A stretch of 64,000 nucleotides of DNA. It comes from an uncultured Microthrixaceae bacterium (GTDB lineage: Bacteria; Actinomycetota; Acidimicrobiia; Acidimicrobiales; MedAcidi-G1). The stretch covers positions 36,082-100,081 of the forward strand of contig CAZPGL010000002.1 of assembly GCA_964586175.1 (NCBI GenBank). The letters run 5' to 3'. This document shows positions 5,169-60,095 of the stretch, piece by piece (positions within the stretch are counted from its first letter, which is position 1; the number at the start of each line of letters is the position of its first letter). Position numbers and translations under genes: made by a program. The notes beneath the pieces are model-generated. The model did no database searches and had not been told where the DNA came from. It saw only the letters and a list, made by a program, of their open reading frames with translations.

Positions 5169-5645
5169 TCAGAACAGCGGACCGTCGGCGACAACGACCC
5201 CGTCGTCGTCGGCCCACAGGAACATGCCGGGCCGCACCTCCACACCGCCAACGCTGACCGGCACGTCGCGGTCACCGGCTCCGGCCTTGACGCTCTTGCG
5301 GGGGCAGGTACCCCGGGCCCGGATCCCGACGGCCTGGTCCCGTAGTTCGACGGCGTCGCGGACACAACCGTCGACCACGATGCCGGCCCAGCCGTTGGCG
5401 ACCGCCAGCTCACCCAGGTTGCCCCCCACCAGCGCACAACGGGTCGAACCGCCGCCGGCGACGAGGAGCACCCGGCCTTCGCCCGTCTCCTCCAGCGCCG
5501 CACGGACCAGCGTGTTGTCCTCGAATACCGACAAGGTCGTGACCGGTCCGGCGAACGCCGGGACCCCGCCGTAGGAGCCGAAACCGCCGCCGAGCACCTG
5601 CACGGCATCGCCGTGATCGTCGCACAGATCGGCGGTGGCCCACAT
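5169..5645 (-). CDS. rraA: RraA-family protein (RNase E regulator / HMG-CHA aldolase-like)
   Basis: 158 aa. Aligns by eye along its full length with E. coli RraA: TADLCD...FGSYGG...TLSVFEDN...GRVLLVAGGGSTRCALVGGNL...GIVVDGCVRD. Its ATG overlaps the upstream TGA stop (TGATG at 5647..5643). Confidence 0.85.
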   Translation of the reverse strand: MWATADLCDDHGDAVQVLGGGFGSYGGVPAFAGPVTTLSVFEDNTLVRAALEETGEGRVLLVAGGGSTRCALVGGNLGELAVANGWAGIVVDGCVRDAVELRDQAVGIRARGTCPRKSVKAGAGDRDVPVSVGGVEVRPGMFLWADDDGVVVADGPLF

Positions 5646-6031
5646 CAGCCGTCGGCCCCCAGAAACTCGTACAACGCGTCCTTGGGTCGACCGACCCGGG
5701 CGGACAGCGGCCCGTCACCACCCAGATCCCCCCGCACCAGCACCGGACGCTGCAGCAGGGCTTTGCGCCGGGCCAGCAGCTCGACCACGGCGTCGGCGTC
5801 GCCGACATAGTCGTCGGGATCCAGCTCCAGCTTCTTGAACTGCGAGTCCTTGCGCACAAGGTCCTCGACCGGCCCGTCGAGGCCGGCGGCGATGCGGGAC
5901 AGCAGGGCCGCGTCGGGCGGCTCCTTCATGTAGAGCACGACGTCGATCTGCACCCCCAGTTCCTCGGCGACCGCCAAGGCGTTCTTGGAAGCGTGTCAAT
6001 GCGGGTTGTGGAAGACGGTGATGTCGGCCAT
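5645..6031 (-). CDS. ArsC/Spx/YffB-family reductase with in-frame UGA at the catalytic Cys position (candidate selenoprotein, 128 aa)
   Basis: The track lists only 5645..5977, which starts at an internal TTG. The same frame continues upstream: ATG(6031..6029) A D I T V F H N P H TGA(5998..5996) H A S K N A L A V A E E L... GAGGGG lies 6 nt before the ATG. ArsC Arg positions are conserved (LVRKD, LLQRPV, VGRPKD). Confidence 0.7.
5962..5979 (-). other. SECIS-like hairpin downstream of UGA (7-bp stem, GGUC tetraloop)
   Basis: mRNA sequence CCUUGGC-GGUC-GCCGAGG. It starts 17 nt after the UGA at 5998..5996. The stem contains one G.U pair. Confidence 0.4.
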
Positions 6032-6055
6032 CGGGGCCCCTCGTGGTCGGCGGGC

Positions 6056-6361
6056 TCAAGCCCGGTGTTCGATGTGGGCACGCAGGTGGGTGCCGGCGGG
6101 GTCGGTCCAGCCCTTGGACCGGGCGTAGTCGACCATGGCCGTGAAGCCGGCCTCCCAGTCGTCGTCGGCCCGTACCCCGACCCAATGCCGGATCGCCCGC
6201 TCGGCGATCCAGAGGTAGCCGTTCTCGGCCCTGGTTCCTTCGCCCATGGTGGCGGCCAGACGGTCGGCGGCGCCGTCCCCGTCGGCTTCGACGTGGAACC
6301 CGGTGAACAGGTCGTAGTCGTCGACGGTCACGTCGCCGGCTGAACTCACCTTGATGATCAC
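6056..6361 (-). CDS. hypothetical protein (101 aa), first gene of the hyp-ArsC-RraA operon
   Basis: ORF with a GTG start and AGAGGGCG upstream. High GC3. It ends 24 nt upstream of the ArsC-like ATG. I do not recognise the family (…GYLWIAERAIRHWVGVRADDDWEAGF…). Confidence 0.55.
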   Translation of the reverse strand: MIIKVSSAGDVTVDDYDLFTGFHVEADGDGAADRLAATMGEGTRAENGYLWIAERAIRHWVGVRADDDWEAGFTAMVDYARSKGWTDPAGTHLRAHIEHRA

Positions 6362-7773: not shown

Positions 7774-8238
7774 ATGCCGTCCCCAGCCGTGGTCTCCTAC
7801 CTCGATCAGACCGGCCAGCCGCGCCGCCTCGTCGTCCGGCTGGACACCGACGGCACCGTCCCCGTCTTCGAACAACTCCGCGCCCAGCTCTCGGTAATGG
7901 TGGCCGTGGGCCATCTCCCACCGGGGGTCCGGCTACCGACGGTCCGACACCTCGCCGACCGGCTGTCCCTGGCCCCGGGCACGGTCGCCCGCACCTACCG
8001 CGAACTGGACCAAGACGGCGTGGTCACCGGGCGGGGCCGACTCGGGACCTTCGTGGTCGACGAGCCGCCGGAGTCCGAACCGCTGCATGAACGGCGACGC
8101 CGACTCGACGAGGCCGCGACCCGATTCGCCTTCGCGGCCCGGCAACTGGGGGTCGACGCCGTCGGCGCCCACACCGCGCTGGACCGGGCCATCGAGTCGG
8201 TGGCGGCCGGAGAGGCCGACGACACCCGGGAGATCTAG
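7774..8238 (+). CDS. GntR-family transcriptional regulator (short, YtrA-like)
   Basis: ORF 7750..8238 trimmed to the ATG at 7774. wHTH region: PVFEQLRAQLSVMVAVGHLPPGVRLPTVRHLADRLSLAPGTVARTYRELDQDGVV. Confidence 0.85.
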   Translation: MPSPAVVSYLDQTGQPRRLVVRLDTDGTVPVFEQLRAQLSVMVAVGHLPPGVRLPTVRHLADRLSLAPGTVARTYRELDQDGVVTGRGRLGTFVVDEPPESEPLHERRRRLDEAATRFAFAARQLGVDAVGAHTALDRAIESVAAGEADDTREI

Positions 8239-9131
8239 GCGCCGAACACCGGAGCCGGCTCCGGCGCGCCGGCAATCGACGCCCGGGCCGCGTCACCCGC
8301 CTCGGCGACGGTGAACCGGCGGTCGCCGATCGACACGACCGGGCCGTGCTGCCATCCGTCGCACACGTTGAGCTGGCCTCCGGTGGCCTCGAACATCCGC
8401 CCGGTGACGTCACACCCGTCACTGCCCAACCACACGACGAGCGGCGACACGTTGCCCGGGTCCTTGTCGTCCCAACCATCGGGCGCCGCGGCGTCGTAGA
8501 TCACGCCTTCGGTCATGCGAGTGCGGGCATCGGGGGCGACGCCGTTCACCAGCACCCCGTAACGACCCCACTCTGCGGCCGCCTGCACCACCAGGAGGGC
8601 GATGCCCGCCTTGGCCGCCGCATAGTTGCCCTGCCCGATACTGCCCATCAGCCCGGCGCCCGACGAGGTCATGACGATTCGGCCCGCCACCTGCTCGCCG
8701 GCCTTGGCCCGGTCCCGCCAGTGGGCGATGGCGTGGCGGGCCGGGGCGAAGTGGCCCTTCAGGTGGACCCGGGTGACCGAATCCCACTCGTCCTCGGACA
8801 TGTTGGCCAGCATCCGGTCGCGGAGGAACCCGGCGTTGCACACGAGGGTGTCGAGGCGGCCGAACGTGTCGACGGCCTGGGCCACCATGGCCTCGGCCTG
8901 ATCCCAGTCTGCGACGTCGGCACCGTTGGTGATGGCGGTACCGCCGGCAGCCTCGATCTCGGCCACGACCTGCTCGGCGGGCGTGCCGCCGGCCTCCTCG
9001 CCGTCGCGGCCGACGCCCAGGTCGTTGACGACGACCATCGCCCCTTCGGCGGCGAAGGCCAGGGCGTGTTCGCGTCCCAGGCCGCGCCCGGCTCCGGTCA
9101 CGATCACCACCCGTCCGTCTGCACTGCCCAT
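8235..9131 (-). CDS. short-chain dehydrogenase/reductase (SDR)
   Basis: 298 aa. VVIVTGAGRGLG, NAG, and SSGAGLMGSIGQGNYAAAKAG (the YxxxK motif). Confidence 0.9.
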   Translation of the reverse strand: MGSADGRVVIVTGAGRGLGREHALAFAAEGAMVVVNDLGVGRDGEEAGGTPAEQVVAEIEAAGGTAITNGADVADWDQAEAMVAQAVDTFGRLDTLVCNAGFLRDRMLANMSEDEWDSVTRVHLKGHFAPARHAIAHWRDRAKAGEQVAGRIVMTSSGAGLMGSIGQGNYAAAKAGIALLVVQAAAEWGRYGVLVNGVAPDARTRMTEGVIYDAAAPDGWDDKDPGNVSPLVVWLGSDGCDVTGRMFEATGGQLNVCDGWQHGPVVSIGDRRFTVAEAGDAARASIAGAPEPAPVFGA

Positions 9132-12428: not shown

Positions 12429-12779
12429 ATGACCACGACTGAACGCCTGCTGCTGTACCACAACCCCGGTTGAGGCAAGTCCCGAGGCGCCCTCGGCCTG
12501 CTCGAGGAGCGCGGCGTCGAGTTCGACGTCATCCAGTACCTGCAACAGCCCCTCACCCGCTCGGTCGTCGAGGGCTTCCTCGACATGCTCGACGGGCCAC
12601 CCGCCGACCTGGTCCGGGCCGACCCGGCCAAGGGCATCGACCCGACGGGCCTGGACGCGGCCGGCGTCGTCGACCTGCTGCTCGCCCACCCGCAGGCCAT
12701 GCAGCGGCCGGTGGCCGTGCACGGCGGCCGGGCCGTCATCGCCCGACCATCGGAGCTGGTCCTCGACCTGCTGGACTGA
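12429..12779 (+). CDS. ArsC-family reductase with in-frame UGA at the catalytic Cys position (candidate selenoprotein, 116 aa)
   Basis: Track ORF 12270..12473 ends ...MTTTERLLLYHNPG at the TGA 12471..12473. ORF 12585..12779 is in the same frame. Joined reading: MTTTERLLLYHNPG-U-GKSRGALGLLEERGVEFDVIQYLQQPL...LVRAD...AMQRPVAV...VIARPSELVLDLLD. Confidence 0.7.
12482..12496 (+). other. GC hairpin 8 nt downstream of the UGA (possible SECIS core)
   Basis: CCGAGG-CGC-CCUCGG. An alternative pairing is CCUCG(12491..12495)/CGAGG(12503..12507) with a 7-nt loop. No clear GU-containing apical loop. Confidence 0.3.
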
Positions 12780-24766: not shown

Positions 24767-24799
24767 ACGGATCTCCACCCCGGACCGCGTCCACCGCAG

Positions 24800-24873
24800 T
24801 GGAGGTGAGCGGAATCGAACCGCCGACTTCTACGTTGCGAACGTAGCGCTCTAGCCAACTGAGCTACACCCCC
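24800..24873 (-). tRNA. tRNA-Ala (anticodon CGC)
   Basis: Minus strand: GGGGGTGTAGCTCAGTTGGCTAGAGCGCTACGTTCGCAACGTAGAAGTCGGCGGTTCGATTCCGCTCACCTCCA. The cloverleaf folds by hand. Anticodon loop TTCGCAA. G3:U70 Ala identity pair present. CCA is not encoded. Confidence 0.95.
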
Positions 24874-25593: not shown

Positions 25594-26073
25594 TCAGCCG
25601 ACGGACCGCCGCCAGGATCCCGACCGCCCGCCGTCCTTCTCCCACAGGGCCACCGGCCCGATGCTCATGGAGCGGTCCAGGGACTTGCACATGTCGACCA
25701 CCGTGAGGGCCGCCACCGAACAGGCGGTGAGGGCCTCCATCTCGACCCCAGTCCGGTCGACGGTCTCGACGACGGCCTCGATGTCGACCGCCCCCTCCCC
25801 CACCACGAGCTCCACCACGACCGAGCTGAGCGGCAACGGGTGACACAGCGGGATGAGCTCCGAGGTGCGCTTGGCGGCCTGGATGCCGGCCACCCGGGCC
25901 ACGGCCAGCACGTCGCCCTTGGGCACGCTGCCGCCGGCCAGGGCCGCCGACGTCGTCGGGGCCATCTCGACCCGGGCCCGCGCCAGGGCGCGACGCCGGG
26001 TGACGGCCTTGTCGCCGACATCGACCATGCGGGCCCGGCCGTCGGCGTCCAGGTGGGTGAACTCGGCCGACAT
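25594..26073 (-). CDS. moaC: cyclic pyranopterin monophosphate synthase
   Basis: ORF trimmed to the ATG at 26073 ([12 protein letters not shown]...), which overlaps the moaA stop. Motifs: [49 protein letters not shown]. Confidence 0.95.
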
Positions 26074-27110
26074 CAGCCGCCGATCTGGGACATCGACCGG
26101 GCCGGCCGGATGAAGTCGACGGTGCCGATGCCGTGTCCGGCCCATTTGGCACCGACGGCCCGCTCCACCAGGGCTCCGATCTCGTCGTCGCCGGCCCCCG
26201 ACCGCAGCAACCCGCGCAGGTCGTACTCGTCGAGCCCGAACAGGCAGTTGCGGAACTGGCCGTCGGCGGTGAGCCGGATCCGATCGCAGGTATCGCAGAA
26301 CTTGCGGGTCACGCTGGCGACGACGCCGATCTCGCCGCCGCCGTCCGCGTATGCGAACCGGGTGGCCGGCGCGGCTGTGCGCTCCACGGCCTCCAGCGGA
26401 TACACCTCATGGATCCGGCCCACGATGTCGTCCTGGGTCACGACCTTGGTCGCCGACCAGCCCTCCTCGGCATCGAGCGGCATGAACTCGATGAACCGCA
26501 CCGTCACCCCGGCCTCCCGGCCGAAGCGGGCGAAGTCGATGATCTCGTCGTCGTTGACGCCGGCCATCACGACCATGTTCACCTTGACGGGATCCAGCCC
26601 GGCCTCGAGGGCGGCGTCGATGCCGTCGAGCACCTTGGCCAGATCGTCGCGTCTCGTCAGCTCGGCGAACCGCTCGCGCTGCAACGAGTCGAGCGACACG
26701 TTCACCCGCCGCAACCCGGCCGCGGCCAGCGCAGGAGCGGCCAGGCGCAGGGTCGCCCCGTTCGTGGTAAGCGACAGGTCGGCCGGCAGTTCGGCCAGCA
26801 TGGCGACCAGGGTGGGGAGGTTGGCCCGCAGGGTCGGCTCACCGCCCGTGAGGCGAATGCTGTCGATGCCGTAGCGCTCCACCAGCAGGCGGGACACCCG
26901 GGCGATCTCCTCGTAGGTGAGCACCTCGTCGCGGGGCAGCCACTCGAGACCGTCGGCCGGCATGCAGTAGGTGCACCGGAAGTTGCAGCGGTCGGTGACC
27001 GAGATGCGAAGATCCCGGTGGCGGCGGCCGAAGGAGTCGGTGAGGTGGCGATCCACACCCTGCAGGCTAGAGGTCCGATGCCGCACCAGCCATCCGGCGC
27101 GGGGATTCAA
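26073..27110 (-). CDS. moaA: GTP 3',8-cyclase (radical SAM)
   Basis: [27 protein letters not shown], and a C-terminal [20 protein letters not shown]. The start is uncertain: TTG at 27110 overlaps the moeA stop, and in-frame GTGs lie downstream. Confidence 0.9.
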
Positions 27111-28309
27111 CGCAGGACCAGCACCTCGACCGGTCCGCCGTCGGCGACACCGTCACCGTCGGGCAGCACGGCCAGCGCATCGGCGGCCGCCATCGCCGAG
27201 AGCTGATGCGATCCCTGGCCACCGGCGGAACCGGCGAGCACCACACCGTCGACGACCCGCAACGACACCCTGGCGAAGTGGGTCTTGCCGTCGGGGCGAC
27301 GGCGGAGATCCCCCTCGGCGACGGCCCGCAGGCGCCGTCGATCCAGTTCGGCGTGCCCCGACATGGCCAGCAGTGCCGGCCGGGCGAACAACTCGAACGA
27401 CACCATCGACGACACCGGGTTGCCCGGTAGCCCGAACACCGGCACCCCGCCGACCGTACCGAAGGCCAGGGGTTTGGCCGGCTTGATGGCCACCTGCATC
27501 CAGCGCATGTCGCCCAGCCGGTCGAGCACCGTCTTGACGTAGTCGAAGTCACCCATGCTCACACCCCCCGACGACAGCACCGCGTCGCAGGCACCGTCAC
27601 CATGACAGGCGGAGCGGAACGCCTCCTCAATGGCCGTCTCGTCGTCGGCGATGATGCCCAGATCGACCCCGTCGAACCCGGATTCGGCGAGCAGGGCCAG
27701 CAGGGCGTGGCGGTTGGCGTCGCGGATCAGGCCGGGAGCCAGCGGGGCGTCGCCGTCAACCAGCTCGTCGCCCGTCGACAGCACCCCGACCCGCAGCCCT
27801 CGGGCCACGGCGATCTCGGTGCACCCGATGCTGGCCAACACTCCGAGATGCCCCGGCGTCAGCAGGGTCCCGGCAGCGAACACCGTCTGCCCGGGCTCCA
27901 GGTCCTCGCCGGCCGCCCGCACATGGTTGCCGGCGGGCACCTCGATCTCGACGGTGACCAGTTCGCCGTCGGTGCTGGTGCGCTCGACCATGACGACTGC
28001 GTCGGCCCCCGGCGGGATGAGCGCCCCGGTCATGATGCGCACCGCCTCCCCGGCGGCGACGGTGGCCCCATGGGCCGCACCGGCGGCCTGGGTCCCGACG
28101 ATGCGGAGCACGCGGGGCGCCCCGACCGTGTCGGCGGCCCGGACGGCAAACCCGTCCATGGCGGTGTTGGCGAACGGCGGCACCGCCTCGGCGGTCACGA
28201 TGTCCTCGAACAGCACCCGGCCCCGCGCCTCGTCGGGGTGCACCCGCTCGACCCGCGGCCCCGGGCAGCGTTCCAGAACGTGGGCTCGGGCCTCCTCGAG
28301 CGGAATCAT
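27107..28309 (-). CDS. moeA: molybdopterin molybdenumtransferase
   Basis: 400 aa. PPFANTAMDGFAVRAAD, VLSTGDELV, SGGVSMGDFDYV, KPAKPLAFG, GLPGNPVSS. Confidence 0.95.
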   Translation of the reverse strand: MIPLEEARAHVLERCPGPRVERVHPDEARGRVLFEDIVTAEAVPPFANTAMDGFAVRAADTVGAPRVLRIVGTQAAGAAHGATVAAGEAVRIMTGALIPPGADAVVMVERTSTDGELVTVEIEVPAGNHVRAAGEDLEPGQTVFAAGTLLTPGHLGVLASIGCTEIAVARGLRVGVLSTGDELVDGDAPLAPGLIRDANRHALLALLAESGFDGVDLGIIADDETAIEEAFRSACHGDGACDAVLSSGGVSMGDFDYVKTVLDRLGDMRWMQVAIKPAKPLAFGTVGGVPVFGLPGNPVSSMVSFELFARPALLAMSGHAELDRRRLRAVAEGDLRRRPDGKTHFARVSLRVVDGVVLAGSAGGQGSHQLSAMAAADALAVLPDGDGVADGGPVEVLVLR

Positions 28310-28375
28310 GGGGCTCCCATGGGTGACATCGTGTGCGCCGGTCGGCGGGAAGGCGAGGCTACCCAGGCCGGGCGC

Positions 28376-49760: not shown

Positions 49761-50216
49761 TCAGCGCAGGAAGCGGCTGACGCTGTCGACCACGCACGCC
49801 GGGCGGTCGTGGCCTTCGATCTCGACGGTGATCCGGATGACCACCTGGACGCCACCGGCCACCTCGTCGACCTCCACGACCTCGGCCCCGGCCCGAACCC
49901 GCGCATCCACGGGCACCGCCGACGGGAACCGCACCTTGTTCACCCCGTAGTTGACGCCCATGGAAACGCCCCGCACCTCGAGGAGGGTGGGGAGCAGCAT
50001 GTTGGTGAGCGACAGGGTCAGATACCCGTGGGCGATGGTCGACCCGAACGGGCCGTCGGCGGCAGCCGCCGGGTCGACGTGGATCCACTGGTGGTCGCCG
50101 GTGGCGTCGGCGAACCGGTCGATGCGCTCCTGGTCGATCACCATCCAGTCGCTGTGGCCGAGATGGGTGCCGACGGCGTCGGCCAGAGCGTCGGGACTGT
50201 CGAAGACGGTGGGCAT
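49761..50216 (-). CDS. MaoC-like (R)-hydratase hotdog-fold protein
   Basis: ORF trimmed to the ATG at 50216. Motifs: ERIDRFADATGDHQWIHVDPAAAADGPFGSTIAHGYL. Confidence 0.85.
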   Translation of the reverse strand: MPTVFDSPDALADAVGTHLGHSDWMVIDQERIDRFADATGDHQWIHVDPAAAADGPFGSTIAHGYLTLSLTNMLLPTLLEVRGVSMGVNYGVNKVRFPSAVPVDARVRAGAEVVEVDEVAGGVQVVIRITVEIEGHDRPACVVDSVSRFLR

Positions 50217-50313
50217 GGCAGGCCTCGGGGTCGGGTCGGTCGTGGGTCCGGAGCCGACACTACGCTGCACGGGTCCACCGTCCCTCGTCCGAGCACCGGG
50301 AGCCCGACACGAC

Positions 50314-51219
50314 ATGGCAACCTCCGGCGGCACCAAGGCCGTCCTCGCCGCACTCTTCGCCAACCTCGGCATCGCCATCGCCAAGATGGTCGGCTTCATC
50401 ATCACCAGGTCGTCGTCGATGCTGGCCGAGAGCATCCACTCGGCGGCCGACACCGGCAACCAGGCTCTGCTGCTCCTCGGCGGTCGCCGCGCATCCCGTC
50501 CTGCGACACCGTCCCATCCCTTCGGACACGGGCGCGAGCGCTACTTCTGGTCGTTCGTGGTCGCCATCGTGCTGTTCACCCTGGGCGCCGGCTTCGCCCT
50601 GTACGAGGGCATCGAGAAGATCCGCCACCCCCACGCCGTCGACCATCTCGAATGGGCGGTCGGCATCCTTGCCATCGGCATCGTGCTCGAAGGCTTCTCG
50701 TTCCGGACGGCGATCGTCGAGGCCAACCGGGTGCGGGGCGACCTGTCATGGTCCCGGTTCGTGGTGCGGGCCAAGCAGCCCGAGCTGCCGGTGGTCCTGC
50801 TCGAGGACGCCGGGGCCATGCTGGGTCTGGTCATCGCCATGGCGGCCGTGGTCCTGAGTGACGTGACCGGCGAACCCCGCTGGGACGGGGTGGGCACCCT
50901 GACCATCGGGTTGCTCCTGGCCGCCATCGCCGTGGTCCTGGCCCGGGAGATGAAGAGCCTGCTGATCGGTGAGGCCGCAAATGCCAGCGACCGGGAGGCC
51001 ATCATCACCGCCATCACCGGGGTCGACGCCGTCGTGTCGCTGGCCGACCTGCGCACCCAACACCTCGGTCCCGACGACATCCTGGTGGGGGCCAAGGTCG
51101 TGCTGCGGGCCGACCTGAGCACGGCCGGCGTCGTGGCCGCCATCGACGAGATCGAGGCCGGTGTACGGGCCATGGTACCGACCGCCCACCCGATCTACGT
51201 CGAGCCGGTCGAGGGCTGA
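50314..51219 (+). CDS. cation diffusion facilitator (CDF) family transporter
   Basis: ORF 49951..51219 trimmed to the ATG at 50314. Motifs: SSSMLAESIHSAADTGNQ, HPFGHGRERYFWSF, and a C-terminal cytoplasmic domain. Confidence 0.85.
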   Translation: MATSGGTKAVLAALFANLGIAIAKMVGFIITRSSSMLAESIHSAADTGNQALLLLGGRRASRPATPSHPFGHGRERYFWSFVVAIVLFTLGAGFALYEGIEKIRHPHAVDHLEWAVGILAIGIVLEGFSFRTAIVEANRVRGDLSWSRFVVRAKQPELPVVLLEDAGAMLGLVIAMAAVVLSDVTGEPRWDGVGTLTIGLLLAAIAVVLAREMKSLLIGEAANASDREAIITAITGVDAVVSLADLRTQHLGPDDILVGAKVVLRADLSTAGVVAAIDEIEAGVRAMVPTAHPIYVEPVEG

Positions 51220-51902
51220 TGCGGCGGCTGGTGTCGCTGGCGGCCGCCGTGATCTGCGCGGTCGCCGCGTGGGCGTGGTTCGACGTGACGGTGGGCCGCC
51301 ATCGCCTGTGGGACGCCTACGCCGGCGGTCGCCGGGCCCGCCGCCGCTCGCAGCTGGCTGTCCACCCGGTGCAGGCTGGCGACACGGTGTTCCTCGGTGA
51401 CAGCCTCACCGAAGAAGGCTCTTGGGCGGCGGCGTTTCCCGGGCTGGCGGTCTGCAACCGGGGGGTCGGCGGGGACACCACCGCCGACGTCCTTGAGCGG
51501 CTCGACGATGCCGTGACCGGGCCGCCGGCCGCGGTGATCCTGTGCATCGGCACCAACGACCTCTGGTATTCGGTCGCCCACGCCCAGATTGTGCGCAACA
51601 CGGCCCGCATCTTGGACCACGTCATGGAATCCACACCGTCGACCCGGCTGGTGCTGCAGGCCGTGCCACCCCGACGGGACCGGTACCAGGCGGTGATCCC
51701 GGCCCTGAACACCGCGTTGCGCCGGGTGGCCGACGAGCGGGGCATCGAGTTCGTCGACCTGACCGAGGCCCTGTCGGGCCGCGACGGGCTGCTCGACGCC
51801 ACGCTGACCAACGACGGCCTCCACCTCAACGGCGACGGCTACCGCCACTGGTACAGGGTGCTGGAACCGGTGCTCGAACCGGTGCTGCACCCGACCCACT
51901 GA
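51219..51902 (+). CDS. SGNH/GDSL hydrolase
   Basis: 227 aa. FLGDSLTE (block I), GVGGDTT (II), IGTNDL (III), DGLHLNGDGY (V). Confidence 0.85.
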   Translation: MRRLVSLAAAVICAVAAWAWFDVTVGRHRLWDAYAGGRRARRRSQLAVHPVQAGDTVFLGDSLTEEGSWAAAFPGLAVCNRGVGGDTTADVLERLDDAVTGPPAAVILCIGTNDLWYSVAHAQIVRNTARILDHVMESTPSTRLVLQAVPPRRDRYQAVIPALNTALRRVADERGIEFVDLTEALSGRDGLLDATLTNDGLHLNGDGYRHWYRVLEPVLEPVLHPTH

Positions 51903-51946
51903 GGGCGGATCGTCGCAGCGGCCGGCCCCGCCCGTACGCTCGGACC

Positions 51947-54052
51947 ATGGCCGCGGACAGCACGGACCGCATCGAGTTGCCGATCGACGGCATGACGTGT
52001 GCCGGCTGCGTGGCGTCGGCCACCAGGGCCCTCGAAGGGGTAACGGGGGTCAGCGCCGCTGCCGTCAACCTGGCCACCCGATCGGCGATGGTCACCGTGG
52101 GCCCCGAGGTCACCGAAGCCGACCTGCGGCTGGCCGTCGAACAGGCCGGGTACACGGTGCCCGTCGGCGAACGGGAGGACGACCGGGCCTCGATCGACCG
52201 GCGACTCCGTGCCGCCGTCCCGCTCACCGTGCTGGCCATGGTGCTGGCCATGGTGCCGGCGGTCCCCGACGACCTGGCCCACTGGGGATCGGCGTTGGCC
52301 GCCCTTCCCGTGTATCTGTGGGCGGGCGCCGACATCCACGCCAGGGCGTTGTCCGGTCTGCGGCACCGGGTCACGTCGATGGACACCCTCATCACGATGG
52401 GAACCACGGCAGCCGTCGGCTGGTCGGTGGCCGGGCTGATGGTCGACGGGGTCGACGCCTACTTCGAGACCGCGGCGGTGATCATCACCCTCGTACTGGT
52501 GGGTCGCCGCCTCGAGGCCGGTGCCCGCCGGAGCTCCGGCAGCGCCCTACGGGCCCTCCTCGACCTGGCCCCGGCCACCGTCACACTGGCCGACGGCCGG
52601 GAGGTGCCCTTCGCCGAGCTCCGGGTGGGCGACCGGTTCATGGTCCGTCCAGGTGAGCGGCTGGCGGCCGACGGAACGGTCGTCGAGGGCTTCGGGTCGA
52701 TCAACGCGTCGATGCTGACCGGCGAACCGCTCCCGGTCGACGTGGTACCCGGCGACGAGGTGGCCGGCGGCACGGTGAACACCACCGGTGTGCTGACCGT
52801 CGAGGCCGACCGCACCGGCGACGACGCCACCGTCGTGCGTCTGGCCCGCATGGTGGCCGACGCCCAGGCCGGCCGGGCACCGGCCCAGAGGCTGGTCGAC
52901 CGGGTCTCGGCCGTGTTCGTCCCACTGGTCCTCGTCCTGGCCACCGCCACGTTGACCGGCCGACTACTCATCGGGCACACCGGTGACGACGCCGTCACCG
53001 CCGCGGTCACCGTGTTGATCATCGCCTGCCCGTGCGCCCTGGGGCTGGCCACACCGACCGCCCTGCAGGTGGGCACCGGTCGGGCGGCCCAACTCGGGGT
53101 GCTGCTCCGGTCGGCTGGCGTGCTCGAGACGACCCGCCGACTCACCACGGTCGTGGTCGACAAGACCGGCACGCTCACCAACGGCCGGATGTCGCTGGTC
53201 GACCTGGTGGCCGTCGACGACCACGACCGCTCCGAGACTCTCCGGCTGGCCGCCGCCGTCGAGGCCGGTTCCGAGCACCCGGTGGGCCGGGCGATCGCCG
53301 CCGCGGTCGACGACGCTCCCTGGGCCGTCGACGTGACTGCCGAACCGGGCTTCGGCATCTCGGGCACCGTCGACGGCCGGATGGTGGCTGTCGGGCGCCT
53401 CTCGGACGAGGCAGCCGCCCGACCCGGCATCGCGGACCTGGTCGGCCGAGGCCACACCATCGCCGAGGTCACCGTCGACGGCACCACCGTCGGGGCGGTC
53501 GCCGTCGGCGACACCGTCCGGCCGGAGGCCCGACAGGCCGTCGAGCGGCTCCACGCCCTGGGCCTCCATGTGGTGATGCTCACCGGCGACGGGCCCGACA
53601 CCGCCCAACGGGTGGCCGCCGAGGTCGGGATCGGCGAGGTGGTCGCCGGCGTGCGCCCCGACGGCAAGGTCCAGGCGGTGCTCGACCTACGCTCCCCCGA
53701 CGCCCATATCGCCATGGTGGGCGACGGACTCAACGACACGCCGGCCCTGGCCGCTGCCGATCTGGGCATCGCGATTGGAGGGGGCACCGACGCCGCCACC
53801 GAAGCCGCTGGCGTGGTGTTGCTGACCGACGACCTGCGAGCGGTGGCCGACGCCATCGCCCTGTCGCGACGCACCGTCGCCACCATCCGGACCAACCTGG
53901 TCTGGGCGTTCCTCTACAACGTGGCTGCCCTGCCGCTGGCCGTGGCCGGGGCCCTTGCCCCGCCGATCGCCGCCGGTGCCATGGTGGCGTCGTCGCTGTT
54001 CGTGGTGGGCAACTCGCTGCGCCTCCGGAGCTTCACCGGCAGCACCAACTGA
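51947..54052 (+). CDS. copA: heavy-metal P1B-type ATPase, Cu(I)-type (CopA-like)
   Basis: ORF 51542..54052 trimmed to the ATG at 51947. Motifs: GMTCAGCV (HMA domain), CPCALGLATP, DKTGTLT, GDGLNDTPAL. YN...M..SS in the last TM helices suggests Cu+/Ag+ specificity. Confidence 0.85.
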   Translation: MAADSTDRIELPIDGMTCAGCVASATRALEGVTGVSAAAVNLATRSAMVTVGPEVTEADLRLAVEQAGYTVPVGEREDDRASIDRRLRAAVPLTVLAMVLAMVPAVPDDLAHWGSALAALPVYLWAGADIHARALSGLRHRVTSMDTLITMGTTAAVGWSVAGLMVDGVDAYFETAAVIITLVLVGRRLEAGARRSSGSALRALLDLAPATVTLADGREVPFAELRVGDRFMVRPGERLAADGTVVEGFGSINASMLTGEPLPVDVVPGDEVAGGTVNTTGVLTVEADRTGDDATVVRLARMVADAQAGRAPAQRLVDRVSAVFVPLVLVLATATLTGRLLIGHTGDDAVTAAVTVLIIACPCALGLATPTALQVGTGRAAQLGVLLRSAGVLETTRRLTTVVVDKTGTLTNGRMSLVDLVAVDDHDRSETLRLAAAVEAGSEHPVGRAIAAAVDDAPWAVDVTAEPGFGISGTVDGRMVAVGRLSDEAAARPGIADLVGRGHTIAEVTVDGTTVGAVAVGDTVRPEARQAVERLHALGLHVVMLTGDGPDTAQRVAAEVGIGEVVAGVRPDGKVQAVLDLRSPDAHIAMVGDGLNDTPALAAADLGIAIGGGTDAATEAAGVVLLTDDLRAVADAIALSRRTVATIRTNLVWAFLYNVAALPLAVAGALAPPIAAGAMVASSLFVVGNSLRLRSFTGSTN

Positions 54053-54056
54053 CCGG

Positions 54057-54761
54057 TCAAGCCACCGAAGCCCCGAGGAGACCGCCGATCCACCAGGTGA
54101 CCAGGCAGGCTCCGGCCGCCACCGCCACCTGACGGGCCACGGTCCGCACCACCGACCGTTCGGTGAGCCAGGCAAGAGCCACCCCCACACCGGCGACCGA
54201 ACCGACCCCCAATCCGACCGATCCCCACATGGCGGCGTCACCTGAACCCCCCAGCCACGGCAGCAACGGCACCAGAGCGCCGAGAGCGAACGCTCCGAAG
54301 CTGGCTGCCGCGGCACCTGTCGGGTTGCCGAGTTGGGTCGGGTCGACCCCGAGTTCTTCACGGGCATGCACGTCGAGCGCGACATCAGGGTCCGACATCA
54401 GCACCTCTGCGACCTGATCAGCCTCTTCGGCGCCGAGGCCTCGCTCCCGGTAGATGGCCGCCAGTTCCTCCGTCTCGTCCTCGGGGTTCTCGGCGATCGA
54501 CTCCCGTTCGATCTGAAGTTCCCGCTCGACCAACTCGGTCTGAGCCTTCAACGAGATGTATTCGCCGGCCGCCATCGACACCGCCCCGGCCAGAAGGCCG
54601 GACACGCCGGCGACCCGGATCACCGCCGGATCGGAGGTCGCTCCGGCGATCCCGAGGATCAGAGCCACGTTCGACACGAGGCCGTCCGACACCCCGAACA
54701 CCGCGGCTCGTGCGGTGCCACCCTGCACGTCACGGTGTCGATGCACCATCGAAGGGCCCAT
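54057..54761 (-). CDS. VIT1/CCC1-family iron/manganese transporter
   Basis: 234 aa. AAVFGVSDGLVSNVALILGIAG, MAAGEYIS, and an acidic cytoplasmic helix ERELQIERESIAENPEDE. Confidence 0.85.
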   Translation of the reverse strand: MGPSMVHRHRDVQGGTARAAVFGVSDGLVSNVALILGIAGATSDPAVIRVAGVSGLLAGAVSMAAGEYISLKAQTELVERELQIERESIAENPEDETEELAAIYRERGLGAEEADQVAEVLMSDPDVALDVHAREELGVDPTQLGNPTGAAAASFGAFALGALVPLLPWLGGSGDAAMWGSVGLGVGSVAGVGVALAWLTERSVVRTVARQVAVAAGACLVTWWIGGLLGASVA

Positions 54762-54823
54762 GGCCTCCGAACCTAGTGGCTGGGTCCGGGTACGCCGCGA
54801 CGGCCCACTAGCCTCGACCGCCT

Positions 54824-55918
54824 ATGCCCACCGCGCTCGTCATCGGCGGCACCGGACCGACCGGACCGCACATCGTGGAAGGGCTGGGGGCCCGCGGTTT
54901 CGACGTCACCGTGTTCCACTCGGGTCACCACGAGGTGCCCGAGGTCGACCACGTCCCGCACCTCCACGGCGACGCGTTCTCTGCTGACGGCATCGCCGGC
55001 ACCCTCGGCGACCGCGGATTCGACTTGGTCGTCGCCTGCTACGGGCGACTCCGAGCCATCGCCGAGTTCTTCGCCGACCGGTGCGACCGGTTCATCTCGG
55101 TGGGCGGGATCCCGGCCTACCGGGGCGTGTTCGACGCCACCCGGTTCGACCCGCCCGGCCTGCCAATCCCGACCGCCGAATCGGCCCCGCTGGCCGACGA
55201 GGACGACGACGGCAAGAGCTACCGGGTGGCCAAGACCGAGGAGCGGCTGTTCGAGCATCAGCCGGACGCCACCCATTTCCGGTACCCGTTCGTGTACGGG
55301 CCCCGTCAGATCGCACCCCAGGACTGGGTCATCGTGCGCCGGGTCCTCGACGGACGGCCGGCGATCATCGTGCCCGACGGGGGCCTGGCCGCCGAGACCC
55401 GCGCCTATACCCGCAATGCCGCCCACACCGTCCTGTTGGCCGTCGACGTCGACGAATCGGCCGGCCGGGTGTTCAACGTGGGCGACGAGGAGTCCCTCTC
55501 GATCAGCCAGCGCATCCAGTTGATCTGTGACGAGTTGGGCCACGACATGGCGATGGTCAGCGTGCCCACCGACGTGGCGCTGCCGGCCCGGCCCTTGTCC
55601 GGGCAGCACGTGCCGGGTCACCGCATCCTCGACCTGTCGGCCACCCGGTCGGTGCTCGGCTACCGCGATGTCGTTCCGGCCCGCCAGGCGATCCGGGAGA
55701 CGGCCCGCTGGCTGGCCGAGAACCCGCTCCCGGTGGGAATCCGCGAGGAGGCGGTCCTCGAGGACCCGTTCGACTACGAACGGGAGGACCGGCTGCTCGA
55801 CGCCTGGCGCACCGCCATGGCCACGCTCCCCGACCTCGACTACCCGCAGGAACCCGGTTACGGGTGGGCGTACAGCGGGCCGGGCACCAACTACCGGCGG
55901 GACGACACCCGGATCTGA
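54824..55918 (+). CDS. NAD-dependent epimerase/dehydratase family protein
   Basis: 364 aa. ALVIGGTGPTGPHIVEGL is the Rossmann motif. The rest is an extended-SDR-like fold. Confidence 0.75.
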   Translation: MPTALVIGGTGPTGPHIVEGLGARGFDVTVFHSGHHEVPEVDHVPHLHGDAFSADGIAGTLGDRGFDLVVACYGRLRAIAEFFADRCDRFISVGGIPAYRGVFDATRFDPPGLPIPTAESAPLADEDDDGKSYRVAKTEERLFEHQPDATHFRYPFVYGPRQIAPQDWVIVRRVLDGRPAIIVPDGGLAAETRAYTRNAAHTVLLAVDVDESAGRVFNVGDEESLSISQRIQLICDELGHDMAMVSVPTDVALPARPLSGQHVPGHRILDLSATRSVLGYRDVVPARQAIRETARWLAENPLPVGIREEAVLEDPFDYEREDRLLDAWRTAMATLPDLDYPQEPGYGWAYSGPGTNYRRDDTRI

Positions 55919-56829
55919 GCGTCGGCCGACGGGCCGGCCCGCGAGGTCAGCCACGCTCCGCTCAACAACACCACGGTGCCGAGGATCTGCCAGGTGCCCA
56001 GCACCTCGTCCAACACGACGACGCCGAGCACCCCGGCGACCACCGGGATCAGATAGGTCACGATCGACATGCGCACCGCCCCGACCCGGCCGTTCAGGGT
56101 GGCCGCGGCCAGGAAGGCCAGGCCGGTCCCGCCGACCCCGACGGCCACGTTGGCGGCCACCGCCTCTCCCGACCAGGACGACGAGGCCAGGCCCACCAAC
56201 CCGAACGGCAGCGTGGCGACGGTGGCCACGGCCAGCACCCGGGACAACACGGCCAACGAGCCGTAGCGGCGCTGCAACGGGCCGGCCAGGTTGGCGGCGA
56301 AGCCGTAGGAGCACACGGCCAGCAGCACCAGAGCCACCCCGAGGGCATTGGTGTCCCCCGCCGACGCGGTGGGCAGGCCGACCATCAGGATCCCGGCGAC
56401 GCCGACCAGCACGCCGAGGACCTGGACGCGGCTGGTTCCGACCCCGAACAGGGCGGCCGCGGCGATCACCGTGGCCACCGGCATGCCGCTGTTGAGCATC
56501 CCGGTGACCGATGAGTCGATCCACTGTTGGGCCAACGGGAACATGGTGAGCGGAAAGGCCATCCAGGTGACGCCCAGCAGAACCAGGCGCCCCCGGTCCG
56601 CCGGGTCGACGGGGCGCCGGGCCGCCGGAAACACCAGCACGGTCACCAAACCCATGGCGGGACGCAGGAACGTGACCAACCCCGGGTGTTCGGCGTCGAG
56701 AGCGACGTCCATGAACAGGAACGACGACCCCCAGATACCGGCGGCGCAGACGAGCAGCAGCCAGTCGACAGGGGCGAACGGCCGGGCTTCGGCCGGGAGC
56801 ATGGTCGGGGGGCTGGCCTGGTCGTCCAT
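55891..56829 (-). CDS. EamA/DMT-family membrane transporter
   Basis: ORF 55891..57651 trimmed to the ATG at 56829 (MDDQASPP...). Ten hydrophobic segments. Its 3' end overlaps the convergent epimerase gene by 28 nt. Confidence 0.8.
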   Translation of the reverse strand: MDDQASPPTMLPAEARPFAPVDWLLLVCAAGIWGSSFLFMDVALDAEHPGLVTFLRPAMGLVTVLVFPAARRPVDPADRGRLVLLGVTWMAFPLTMFPLAQQWIDSSVTGMLNSGMPVATVIAAAALFGVGTSRVQVLGVLVGVAGILMVGLPTASAGDTNALGVALVLLAVCSYGFAANLAGPLQRRYGSLAVLSRVLAVATVATLPFGLVGLASSSWSGEAVAANVAVGVGGTGLAFLAAATLNGRVGAVRMSIVTYLIPVVAGVLGVVVLDEVLGTWQILGTVVLLSGAWLTSRAGPSADAQIRVSSRR

Positions 56830-56892
56830 AAGCTGCCGACGATAGTGGCGGCCGATTCTCCGGCGCGCGTGCGGCCGGGCCAGACTCCGGTC

Positions 56893-58218
56893 ATGCGCCG
56901 GATGTCCACCGCCCTGTTGGCCCTCGGCCTGGTCGCGGCATCGTGCGGGTCGTCCGGTTCGCCGACCGGACCGGCCGCCTCCGCACCGTCGACGACCACG
57001 GCGGCACCCACCACCACCGCACCGTCGACGACCACGGCGGCACCCACCACCACCGCACCGTCGACGACCACGGCGGCACCCACCACCACCGCACCGTCGA
57101 CGACCACGGCGGCACCCACCACGACGCTCCCACCGTGGACGGCCTTGACCCTCGCCGAGGACACGGCACCGCTCGGTGCTCTGCTGGCCGCCGAGACAAT
57201 CGGGCTGGACTGGCCGGACGCCCCGGCCGTGGCCTGGCGGGTGCGGTACCGGTCGGTGTCGGTCATGGGCGACCCCATCGAGGTCACCGGGCTCATCGTG
57301 GCTCCGGCCGAGCCGGCCACCAGCCCCCGGCCGGTGTTCTCGGTGGTCCACGGCACCACCGGCGTGGCCGACCAGTGCGCGCCGTCCCTCGACTTCCCTG
57401 AGGGCTGGTCGACCGAGTTGATGGTCCCGGCCATCGCCGACGGCTGGGTGGTCGTGGCCACCGACTACGAAGGCATGGGCGGGCCGGGCCTCCACCCGTA
57501 CATCGTCGGCCAGAGCGAGGCCCAGGGCGGCTTCGACATCGTGCGGGCCGCGGCGTCGATCCCCGAGCTGATGGCTACCGGGCCGCTCGTGGTGTGGGGA
57601 CATTCGCAGGGCGGCCACGCCGCCATGCACTCGGCGCAACGCTGGCAGCAACTGGCCCCCGAGCTGAACCTGGTGGGCGTGGCCGCCGGCGCACCCCCCA
57701 GCCAGCTGGGGCTACTGTCCGACTTCCTCAGGGGCTCCGACTTCCAGGGCTACATGGTCATGGCCGGTGCCGGCCTGGCCACCGCCTACCCCGAGCTGGA
57801 GCTCGCCGACGTCGTCAATCCCGACTATCTGCACCTGCTCGACGAGTTGGAGAACGGCTGCAACGACCACATTTTCGAGACGTTCAACGGCATCCCGTAC
57901 GAGGACCTGCTGCTGGTCGACGACATCTTCGCCGAGCCGGACTGGGCGGCCCGACTGACCGAGAACGACACCAACCAGCTGCCGGTGCAGGTACCCACGA
58001 TCATCCTGCACGGCGACCAGGACGAGCAGATCCCGGTCATCTCCAGCCAGTGGCTGTTCGAGCAGGTCTGTGCGATGGACGGCCGGTCGACCCTCGAGCG
58101 CATCGTGTACGAGGGTCACGACCACAGTTCGACCGTCGACGCTTACTGGCCCGACCTGATGGCCTGGACCGGTGACCGGGTAGCCGGTGTCGAAGCGACC
58201 GACGGGTGCCCGGCATGA
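56893..58218 (+). CDS. secreted lipoprotein of the secretory-lipase (LIP, alpha/beta hydrolase) type with (APSTTTAAPTTT)x4 linker
   Basis: ORF 56527..58218 trimmed to the ATG at 56893. MRRMSTALLALGLVAASCG is the lipobox. Motifs: ATDYEGMG, and GHSQGG (the nucleophile elbow). Confidence 0.75.
   Translation: MRRMSTALLALGLVAASCGSSGSPTGPAASAPSTTTAAPTTTAPSTTTAAPTTTAPSTTTAAPTTTAPSTTTAAPTTTLPPWTALTLAEDTAPLGALLAAETIGLDWPDAPAVAWRVRYRSVSVMGDPIEVTGLIVAPAEPATSPRPVFSVVHGTTGVADQCAPSLDFPEGWSTELMVPAIADGWVVVATDYEGMGGPGLHPYIVGQSEAQGGFDIVRAAASIPELMATGPLVVWGHSQGGHAAMHSAQRWQQLAPELNLVGVAAGAPPSQLGLLSDFLRGSDFQGYMVMAGAGLATAYPELELADVVNPDYLHLLDELENGCNDHIFETFNGIPYEDLLLVDDIFAEPDWAARLTENDTNQLPVQVPTIILHGDQDEQIPVISSQWLFEQVCAMDGRSTLERIVYEGHDHSSTVDAYWPDLMAWTGDRVAGVEATDGCPA
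56983..57126. repeat. 36-bp tandem repeat x4 (GCACCGTCGACGACCACGGCGGCACCCACCACCACC), in-frame in the lipase gene
   Basis: Three copies are identical. The fourth diverges only in its last few bases. Confidence 0.95.
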
Positions 58219-59375
58219 GCGAGACGTTGGTCCGGGAGCGCATCGACGCCCTGCTGGCCCACGACCCCGCCGATCGGGCCGGGTTCCTCGGCGCCCAGTA
58301 CGACCTGGGCCTGGCCTGGGTGCACTTCCCCGAAGGGGCCGGCGGGCTGGCCGCCGACCGCAGCCTCCAGACCCTCGTCCACGAGGCGGTGGTCGACGTG
58401 GGCGGCCCTCACCCCCGCTACGACATCGGCTACGGCATGGGCGCACCGACCATCGTCGCGTGCGGTACCCCGGAGCAGTCGGACCGCTGGCTACGCCCCC
58501 TGTTCACGACGGCCGAGGTCTGGTGCCAGCTGTTCTCCGAGCCCGGTGCCGGATCGGACGTGGCCGGCCTGGCCACCCGGGCCGTGCGCGACGGCGACGA
58601 GTGGATCGTCAACGGGCAGAAGGTCTGGACCAGCAACGCCCACGAGGCCGACTGGGGCCTGCTCGTCGCCCGGACCGACCCCGATGTGCCCAAGCACCGG
58701 GGGCTCACCTATTTCGCGGTGCCGCTCGACCAGCCAGGGGTCGAGATCCGACCGCTGCGCCAGATCACCGGCCAGGCTGAGTTCAACGAGGTGTTCTTCA
58801 CCGACGCCCGAATCGCCGACGCCGACCGGATCGGCGACATCGGCGAGGGCTGGCGGGTGGCGCTGACGACGCTCATGAACGAGCGGGTGGCCATCGGCGG
58901 CACCACCAGGGACGCCGGCACGAGCACCATCGACCGGGTCGTCGATGCGTGGCGACGGTACGGCCACGACGACCCCGCCCGGCGCGACGAGCTGATGAAG
59001 TTGTGGATCCGTTCGGAGGCGCTGCGCCTGAACAACCTGCGGGCCGAGGCGGCGCGGGCGACGGGCACGCCGGGCCCCGAGGGTTCGATCGGCAAGATCC
59101 TGTCCGCAGACCTCAACAAGGACGCCTTCGCGTTCGGTGTCGGCCTGGCCGGTATGGCCGGCACCCTGTTCGACGCCGGGTACGTCATGGACCAGTCCCG
59201 GCCGGCGATGCAGTACGACTCGCTGGCCGAGTACTTCCTGCGTTCGCGGGCGAACTCGATCGAGGGCGGCACCACCGAGGTGATGCGCAACATCCTGGGC
59301 GAACGGGTCCTGGGTCTCCCCGGCGACGTGCGGGCCGACAAAGACCGGCCCTGGACCGAGGTCCCCCGCAACTGA
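58215..59375 (+). CDS. acyl-CoA dehydrogenase
   Basis: The ATG at 58215 overlaps the lipase TGA (ATGA). Motifs: WCQLFSEPGAGSD, DEWIVNGQKVWTS, GEGW, IEGGTTEVMRNILGERVLGLP. Confidence 0.9.
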   Translation: MSETLVRERIDALLAHDPADRAGFLGAQYDLGLAWVHFPEGAGGLAADRSLQTLVHEAVVDVGGPHPRYDIGYGMGAPTIVACGTPEQSDRWLRPLFTTAEVWCQLFSEPGAGSDVAGLATRAVRDGDEWIVNGQKVWTSNAHEADWGLLVARTDPDVPKHRGLTYFAVPLDQPGVEIRPLRQITGQAEFNEVFFTDARIADADRIGDIGEGWRVALTTLMNERVAIGGTTRDAGTSTIDRVVDAWRRYGHDDPARRDELMKLWIRSEALRLNNLRAEAARATGTPGPEGSIGKILSADLNKDAFAFGVGLAGMAGTLFDAGYVMDQSRPAMQYDSLAEYFLRSRANSIEGGTTEVMRNILGERVLGLPGDVRADKDRPWTEVPRN

Positions 59376-59408
59376 CCTGCAGGATGGGGACTGTCCCCTT
59401 CCTGCAGG
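59376..59408. terminator. long near-perfect hairpin between convergent genes (bidirectional terminator candidate)
   Basis: CCTGCAGGATGGGGA-CTG-TCCCCTTCCTGCAGG forms 14 bp plus one T.T mismatch, with a 3-nt loop. It starts 1 nt after the ACAD stop and ends 9 nt before the aquaporin stop. Confidence 0.6.
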
Positions 59409-59417
59409 TTGGGGAGG

Positions 59418-60095
59418 TCAGGCGGTTCGGGGGAAGAGGGAGCGGACCACCACCACGGCCACCGCCACCCCCACCACCTGCATGATCACGAACATCGGGG
59501 CACAACCCGGATCGATGCCGGCGAAGGTGTCCGACATCGTGCGGGCCACGGTGACCGCCGGGTTGGCGAAGCTGGTCGACGACGTGAAGTAGTAGGCCCC
59601 GCCGATGTAGGCACCGACCACATACGGGATGCTGCCCAGCCGGGCGGTACGCACCAAGCTGAACACCACCAGCAGCAGTCCGACCGTGGCCACGACCTCC
59701 GCCAACCAGAGGTGGCCCCCCGACCGCTGGGTCGTCGACCACTCCACGGCCGGCAGGTCGAACATGAGGTTGGCCAGGATGGTTCCCAGCACGCCGCCGA
59801 CCACCTGGATGGCGACCATCGGCGCCACCTGGCGCCCGTCACGGTGGCCGAGGGCCCACGCGGCCAGGGTGACCGCCGGGTTGAAGTCGGCTGAGATCGT
59901 GCCGAAGATCGAGATGATGGCGACCAGCACCGCCGCAGTCGCCGCGGCGTTCTGGAACAACTGGAGGCCCACATCGCCGGGCGACAGGCGCTGGGCCATG
60001 ATCCCCGACCCGACGACCCCGACCAGCAGGAACATCGTGCCCAGGCCCTCGGCCAGCAGGGTGCGCCGGAAGCCCGGCGAGCTCAACGCGTTCAT
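59418..60095 (-). CDS. MIP/aquaporin-family channel
   Basis: ORF trimmed to the ATG at 60095 (MNALSSPGFRR...), which overlaps the upstream stop (ATGA). Two NPAVT motifs. Confidence 0.9.
   Translation of the reverse strand: MNALSSPGFRRTLLAEGLGTMFLLVGVVGSGIMAQRLSPGDVGLQLFQNAAATAAVLVAIISIFGTISADFNPAVTLAAWALGHRDGRQVAPMVAIQVVGGVLGTILANLMFDLPAVEWSTTQRSGGHLWLAEVVATVGLLLVVFSLVRTARLGSIPYVVGAYIGGAYYFTSSTSFANPAVTVARTMSDTFAGIDPGCAPMFVIMQVVGVAVAVVVVRSLFPRTA

Follow-up and report, generated by a model that had tools for sequence, protein, structure and literature searches.

The locus described here raises the question of whether a UGA codon inside a bacterial reading frame marks a broken gene or a site at which selenocysteine (Sec) is incorporated. 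It lies in a stretch of 64,000 nucleotides (the window, to which all positions below refer) from an uncultured Microthrixaceae bacterium of the Acidimicrobiales (Actinomycetota, Acidimicrobiia, MedAcidi-G1), positions 36,082 to 100,081 of contig CAZPGL010000002.1 in assembly GCA_964586175.1. A preliminary description of this DNA, made from the sequence alone, had pointed to an ArsC-family gene on the minus strand, hereafter gene 1, in which an in-frame UGA occupies the position of the catalytic cysteine and is followed by a hairpin resembling a Sec insertion sequence (SECIS). Gene 1 is intact and encodes a protein of 128 residues that belongs to the glutaredoxin-type ArsC family (PF03960). We put the probability that it is a genuine selenoprotein gene, recoded via the SECIS at 5979..5962, at roughly 0.9.

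The coding sequence (5645..6031, minus strand) comprises 128 codons including that for Sec, from an ATG at 6031..6029 to a stop TGA at 5647..5645. A Shine-Dalgarno-like GAGGGG (6037..6042, minus strand) is located 5 nt 5' of the ATG. The translation of 6031..5645, MADITVFHNPH*HASKNALAVAEELGVQ...GADG*, contains one internal stop only, the TGA at 5998..5996 (minus strand), which is the predicted Sec codon (U12, in the UxxS motif HNPH-U-HAS). Start codon, internal UGA, ribosome-binding site and terminal UGA are thus all where the preliminary description had placed them. As it had also stated, the mechanical list of open reading frames (ORFs) cuts the gene to a 110-aa ORF that begins at an internal TTG (5645..5977, minus strand), an annotation artefact. 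Public gene calls on identical DNA give 110 or 102 aa for gene 1, in agreement with the earlier warning that such genes are easily mistaken for truncated ORFs.

The simplest explanation for an internal stop would be a sequencing or assembly error, with the codon in reality being TGC or TGT. Gene 1 is identical in four independent assemblies (JGI, ENA), TGA included, with 0 mismatches over 387 nt, and the same codon occurs in a further 80 genomes, so that an error is refuted and its probability is next to nil. A second possibility is that gene 1 is a pseudogene, or that only the downstream ORF (from the TTG at 5977, 110 aa) is made, which would reduce the TGA to an ordinary nonsense codon. The output of ORF finders and public gene callers, which consists of the 110- or 102-aa ORF only, agrees with this, and TGA is the normal stop in the genome. 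The truncated product would, however, be without the HNPxC active-site loop, and the conservation of the gene among its relatives effectively refutes the idea.

For this comparison, one genome per GTDB species was scanned, and the best 80 of the 486 relatives so found were examined (loci L001 to L080), all of them metagenome-assembled or single-cell genomes of marine or aquatic Acidimicrobiales with GC contents of 42–72%. The codon at the column of the catalytic cysteine, Cys12, is TGA in the orthologs of all 80 species, which are colinear with gene 1 and show no other disruption anywhere in this range of base composition. The orthologs start with ATG or GTG at the homologous position, with an AGGAG-type Shine-Dalgarno sequence at the same distance, and the sequence farther 5' is not conserved. 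In the 11 codons 5' of the UGA, the amino acids are conserved and the synonymous sites are variable (all four codons occur at Pro-2, and likewise 4/4 at Thr-7). These N-terminal codons are under purifying selection, selection acts on both sides of the UGA, and translation therefore runs from the ATG through the UGA. Conservation of the start, the Shine-Dalgarno sequence and 11 upstream codons with synonymous-only variation is not what a decayed gene would show, and the claim that the gene is under selection is upheld; we regard the pseudogene explanation as very improbable.

Two side observations concern this set of orthologs. The base directly 5' of the Sec UGA is a U in 79 of 80 of them, and the His codon before the UGA (5999..6001) is CAT in 71 of 72, against a usage of CAC for 83% of the His codons in the window; this bias suggests that the sequence context before the UGA is constrained. 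Two loci carrying the same ortholog and the same SECIS, L053 (CAXMRH010000073.1) and L077 (JBLIMK010000048.1), are labelled Chthoniobacterales and Verrucomicrobiales, respectively, and could be mis-binned contigs or cases of lateral transfer.

A protein search with gene 1 returned 1411 homologs. The closest, with 70–98% identity, are almost all 101–111 aa long and are cut at the same place as the truncated ORF of the window. Full-length relatives at about 60% identity have a Cys in the same motif (for instance HNPHCHASRNA), encoded by TGC. As a control, 82 Cys-form homologs were collected, with TGC (78) or TGT (4) at the UGA column. The comparison of homologs that had been suggested, asking which codon they carry at this column, thus separates TGA in every ortholog from TGC or TGT in the Cys forms.

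In the family searches, Sec was written as Cys. The gene 1 protein matches PF03960 with 39.5 bits (gathering score 24, E = 7e-10), covering profile positions 1–78 of 79, and its best NCBIfam match is TIGR00014 (arsC), with 71.3 bits. Full-length phmmer matches to solved arsenate reductases were obtained for the Yersinia protein (3RDW, 2.7e-13) and for ArsC of plasmid R773 (1I9D and 1JZW, 1.3e-11). In the alignment with 1I9D and 1JZW, the gene 1 UGA falls on the nucleophile Cys12, as had been proposed from the motif. The three catalytic arginines that the preliminary description had recognized are also in register: LVRKD, LLQRP and VGRPKD of gene 1 align with LLRKN, LINRP and LCRPSE of R773 ArsC, which contain Arg60, Arg94 and Arg107, respectively. 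These residues are invariant in alignment A1. Altogether, the catalytic set of R773 ArsC is kept in gene 1 (H8, N9, P10, U/C12, S15, R60, R94 and R107), and the nucleophile of the HNPxCxxS loop is predicted to be Sec in place of Cys12.

Compared with R773 ArsC and the Yersinia enzyme, gene 1 thus has full-length similarity, the HNPxCxxS loop and the Arg triad in common; it differs from them by the Sec, by the lack of an ars operon and by a 7-residue insertion before the Arg107 motif. The insertion (DLGGDGP..., residues ~102–111, in the 5690..5720 region) is a property of the subclade of the window, relative to both Cys forms and other Sec forms. The residue just before VGRP is Cys in many orthologs, like Cys106 of R773 ArsC, and Arg in the window protein.

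Downstream of the UGA, the mRNA can form a hairpin (5962..5979, minus strand) with a 5' arm CCUUGGC at 5979..5973, a GGUC loop at 5972..5969 and a 3' arm GCCGAGG at 5968..5962. Counted from the UGA, the 7-bp stem begins at the 17th nt, and the start of the loop is at a distance of 23 nt; bSECISearch uses a SECIS-to-UGA range of 16–37 nt. In an ungapped alignment of 81 hairpin sequences (A2), the GGUC loop is invariant (81/81) and 99.8% of the cells of the 7-bp stem are paired. Compensatory double changes are found at three of the seven stem pairs, GC to AU in 16 sequences, CG to UA in seven and UA to CG in one, with wobble intermediates present, and the observed covariation score was reached by none of 500 shuffles. 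When the 3' arm was slid as a control, pairing fell to 30–57%.

The synonymous sites inside the hairpin are frozen, with GCG for Ala+8 in 79/79 sequences, GTC for Val+9 in 80/80 and TTR for Leu+7 in 78/80; the other invariant four-fold codons of gene 1 use all four codons (1.6–1.9 bits), and TTG makes up 6.9% of the Leu codons in the window. In the 82 Cys-form homologs, two to six of the seven stem pairs are formed and the GGTC loop occurs in two sequences only, with a mean local folding energy of −4.7 kcal/mol versus −11.3 kcal/mol for the Sec forms. The hairpin is a conserved, covarying RNA element specific to the UGA forms. It stands far above chance because of this comparative evidence: the TGA in 80/80 orthologs, the pairing, the covariation, the frozen synonymous sites and the absence from Cys forms. 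When TGA codons were screened for a downstream stem of 6 bp or more capped by a GGUY loop, gene 1 was the only case in a coding frame.

The hairpin also has the features described for bacterial SECIS elements, a small apical loop with G (GU) and a location just 3' of the UGA (PMC1088965, PMC8659212). Its likeness to the SECIS of Escherichia coli fdhF, which had been put forward earlier, withstood inspection. Of 5426 E. coli genomes, 5419 contain, under fdhF annotation, the sequence TGACACGGCCCATCGGTTGCAGGTCTGCACC, whose apical hairpin is GCA-GGUC-UGC. Both genes thus have the hairpin within the coding region, shortly after the UGA, and share the GGUC tetraloop at its apex. In the fdhF loop, G23 and U24 are the determinants for SelB (PMC8659212). 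Unlike for the fdhF SECIS, alignment of the gene 1 sequences gives no support for a lower stem; the candidate taken from the minimum free energy fold (A2 columns 10–13 with 41–44) was rejected, as pair 12–42 fails in 27 of 80 sequences.

Several results weigh against the reading of gene 1 as a selenoprotein gene. Single-sequence folding of the hairpin is not significant (z = −0.26, with 71 of 200 shuffles folding equally well or better), although the z-scores obtained, −0.26 and −1.07, are uninformative in DNA of 71% GC. An Rfam scan of 5900..6050 (E ≤ 10) yielded no family matching the hairpin; coverage of bacterial SECIS elements in Rfam is poor. Relative to fdhF, the loop of gene 1 is 5 nt farther from the UGA (start at nt 27 versus nt 22, where nt 1 is the U of UGA), and its stem, a perfect helix of 7 bp that includes a single U-G wobble, is without a bulged U like U17. 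As for the machinery, ARAGORN did not find a tRNA-Sec in the 64-kb window and the approximately 1.3 Mb of related loci, and SelA, SelB and SelD were not found by Pfam scans of about 50 window ORFs. Neither were selA, selB or selD found by tblastn with E. coli queries in the window and 80 loci, a weak negative. Absence of the sel genes from the window and about 1.3 Mb is unsurprising; these sequences are a small share of each genome, and it is expected by chance.

Support for the machinery comes from the Actinomarinales, another order of Acidimicrobiia, in which selA, selC, selD and a divergent selB are reported from 84 of 84 complete genomes (bioRxiv 10.64898/2026.04.03.716425); for the organism of gene 1, this is support at class level only. 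Nothing relevant was found in the literature on selenocysteine in Microtrichales or Ilumatobacter. The only RNA gene of the window is a tRNA-Ala(CGC) at 24799..24873 (minus strand), and tRNA-Ala was also the only result of an Rfam scan of the window at the gathering threshold. Two molybdenum cofactor genes are present on the minus strand, for a MoaA-like radical SAM protein (26073..27152) and for MoeA (27107..28375); no gene for formate dehydrogenase or another classical selenoenzyme was seen in the window. A scan of TGA-split ORFs for further selenoprotein genes, based on GC content at third codon positions, returned only adjacent same-frame genes, and when read-through peptides from the different loci were clustered, conserved non-coding frames dominated the outcome.

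TGA is the stop codon of 39 of the 44 Pfam-supported window genes, gene 1 included; recoding is therefore local to the gene 1 site and dependent on context, as the preliminary description had argued from the terminal UGA. Following the established bacterial Sec pathway, translation would start at ATG 6031 and reach the UGA at 5998..5996, where SelB carrying Sec-tRNA(Sec) would bind the mRNA hairpin (5979..5962). Delivery of Sec by SelB would compete with release factor 2, and translation would then go on until 5647..5645, where the UGA has no such hairpin and acts as an ordinary stop. Actual insertion of Sec would be carried out by the products of selA, selB, selC and selD.

The UGA could instead be recoded as another amino acid, if the hairpin stimulates its decoding by a suppressor or near-cognate tRNA for Trp, Cys, Arg or Gly, or could have a lineage-specific meaning. 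The Sec machinery was not observed in the window and related loci, and public translations of two orthologs have a G (P0019) or W (P0094) at the Sec column; both facts would fit such recoding, although the G and W are most likely due to the use of genetic codes 25 or 4 in gene calling. A reassigned UGA is at odds with its use as the stop of most window genes, among them gene 1 itself. The position is that of the catalytic Cys of a redox enzyme, with Cys in homologs, which is the classic Sec/Cys signature; a Trp, Gly or Arg as nucleophile would inactivate an ArsC-type enzyme. A SelB-type GGUC loop at a SECIS-typical distance and the fact that the family is already catalogued as a selenoprotein also speak for Sec. 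Recoding to anything else is, in our opinion, improbable, and Sec remains the preferred assignment.

The window contains a second gene of this kind. Gene 2 (12429..12779, plus strand), found by tblastn with gene 1 and 38% identical to it, has an in-frame UGA at 12471..12473 (plus strand) in the sequence YHNPG-U-GKSRGA, again UxxS, and the same Arg triad as gene 1. In the related loci, its syntenic orthologs are separated from gene 1 by about 6 kb, with the two genes on opposite strands, and have TGA at this position in 13 of 13 cases. That a paralog shows the same pattern is a further argument against a chance nonsense codon in gene 1. A candidate SECIS hairpin of gene 2 (12487..12512, plus strand) has the same loop-to-UGA distance as in gene 1, is 95% paired and contains two compensatory pairs (14 sequences); this evidence is weaker than that for gene 1 and points the same way. 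Another hairpin in gene 2 (12513..12530, GGCGUCG-AGUU-CGACGUC) is perfectly conserved and 97% paired (n = 14), with 0 compensatory changes, and may reflect codon preference for GVEFDV.

Sec-containing ArsC proteins are known from marine selenoproteome surveys, as the preliminary description had stated. The 2005 Sargasso Sea survey by Zhang, Fomenko and Gladyshev described 15 new selenoprotein families; Sec-ArsC (COG1393), for which it found 14 sequences and depicted a predicted SECIS, is among them (PMC1088965). The 2008 Global Ocean Sampling (GOS) survey by Zhang and Gladyshev reported 77 sequences of "ArsC 1, pfam03960, UxxS" and a separate family, "ArsC 2, cd03032, UxxC" (PMC2398784). Reviews of 2022 and 2026 list "Arsenate reductase, COG1393/TIGR00014, UxxS", with MBT3519430.1 as an example (PMC9312934, PMC13188914). 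Gene 1 and the published ArsC 1 have in common the Pfam family, the UxxS motif, Sec at the catalytic Cys column and a marine metagenomic origin, as well as a predicted SECIS right after the UGA with a G in a small apical loop. The motif varies between U-H-A-S in gene 1, U-G-K-S in gene 2, and U-N-S-S and U-G-S-S in gene 1 orthologs. Judged by motif, domain and habitat, on which subfamily identity rests, both window genes are assigned to ArsC 1. "Arsenate reductase 2" (cd03032/NF041106, UxxC, Spx-like) shares the PF03960 superfamily and a Sec at the first position of the redox motif; the window genes, in contrast, are UxxS, score best with TIGR00014 over Spx models and have no NF041106 match. 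New here are the assignment to Acidimicrobiales, the Sec form in 80/80 species, the covariation of the SECIS and the linked paralog; nothing essential differs from ArsC 1.

The most likely reading of the function of gene 1, going by its residues and relatives, is arsenate reduction in vivo. Because the Arg60/Arg94/Arg107 oxyanion-binding triad is kept, the most likely chemistry would be attack of the selenolate on an oxyanion, arsenate or one like it, with subsequent reduction by thiols. Two results are unfavourable to an arsenate reductase. The equivalog cut-off of TIGR00014 (106.05) is not reached by gene 1 (71.3 bits) or gene 2 (81 bits), and membership with the same function is therefore not established. 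Furthermore, no arsR, arsB/ACR3 or arsM was found in the 64-kb window or beside the ortholog in six diverse relatives, although such neighbours are helpful context and not strictly needed for an arsenate reductase.

Gene 1 may thus encode a selenoprotein of the ArsC fold that acts as a selenol/thiol oxidoreductase on another substrate, with a housekeeping redox role. The sub-threshold TIGR00014 score and the lack of an ars operon context fit this alternative, and so do the two paralogs kept side by side and the presence of the gene in every species examined, like a core gene; a review calls the functions of such selenoproteins uncharacterised (PMC13188914). Against it, the full R773 catalytic set is kept, and arsenate reductases make up both the closest solved structures and the closest curated family. 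It is also common for ArsC genes to lie outside ars operons. We consider a different substrate possible but the less likely case, and retain arsenate reduction as the preferred function.

The surroundings of gene 1 contain genes for an RraA-like protein, enoyl-CoA hydratases, P-II, asparaginase II, an aminotransferase and a LysR regulator. The RraA-family gene (5169..5645, minus strand; Pfam RraA-like, 1e-43; NCBIfam NF006875, above cut-off) lies directly downstream, and its ATG overlaps the ArsC stop in a TGATG (window 5169..5647). The two genes are probably co-transcribed and translationally coupled. The pair is kept even in a relative of 45% GC, L027 (RraA-family gene at 7802..8278), and its retention in relatives of such base composition suggests an operon with translational coupling. 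Directly 5' of gene 1 is a 101-aa ORF (6056..6361, minus strand) without Pfam or NCBIfam match, called as a gene in public assemblies of the same organism; its terminal TGA and the ArsC ATG, 24 nt farther on, are in the same frame. Fusion of gene 1 with this ORF was considered and rejected, as the region 5' of the start is without protein conservation and most orthologs have a stop there. A metal and solute transport cluster is present at 49951..60257, about 45–54 kb from gene 1, with genes for a CDF cation-efflux protein (49951..51219), a heavy-metal P-type ATPase with an HMA domain (51497..54052) and a MIP-family channel (59418..60257). MIP channels are able to transport arsenite; a link of the cluster to the ArsC genes is not established.

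A more far-reaching proposal is that the Sec form is the only ArsC-like form across marine and aquatic Acidimicrobiales, serving either as a core selenoenzyme with a non-arsenate substrate or as an obligatory arsenate defence at low phosphate, and decoded by a sequence-specific SelB. It is based on the Sec form being the only one in the 80 species examined, the frequent Sec paralog about 6 kb away, the coupling to RraA and the lack of adjacent ars genes, and we offer it as a speculation, rather doubtful as it stands. The 19-nt SECIS sequence GCCUUGGCGGUCGCCGAGG is near invariant across genomes of 42–72% GC, which, if the proposal is true, might be due to an unusually high sequence specificity of SelB in these organisms.

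General knowledge of selenoproteins is unchanged by these results, the family having been catalogued since 2005, and they will not surprise specialists. Their consequences for annotation are more immediate. Databases store gene 1 and its orthologs as fragments of 101–111 aa, named "hypothetical" or "arsenate reductase" and devoid of the active site, and the G or W at the Sec position of some entries is a second type of mis-annotation beside truncation. Every Acidimicrobiales genome examined is therefore mis-annotated at gene 1 and, where present, at gene 2. The SECIS of gene 1, clean and supported by covariation, is a possible seed for a covariance model, since Rfam finds nothing at this site. 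For the organisms themselves, the findings indicate that an abundant group of marine Actinomycetota is dependent on selenium.

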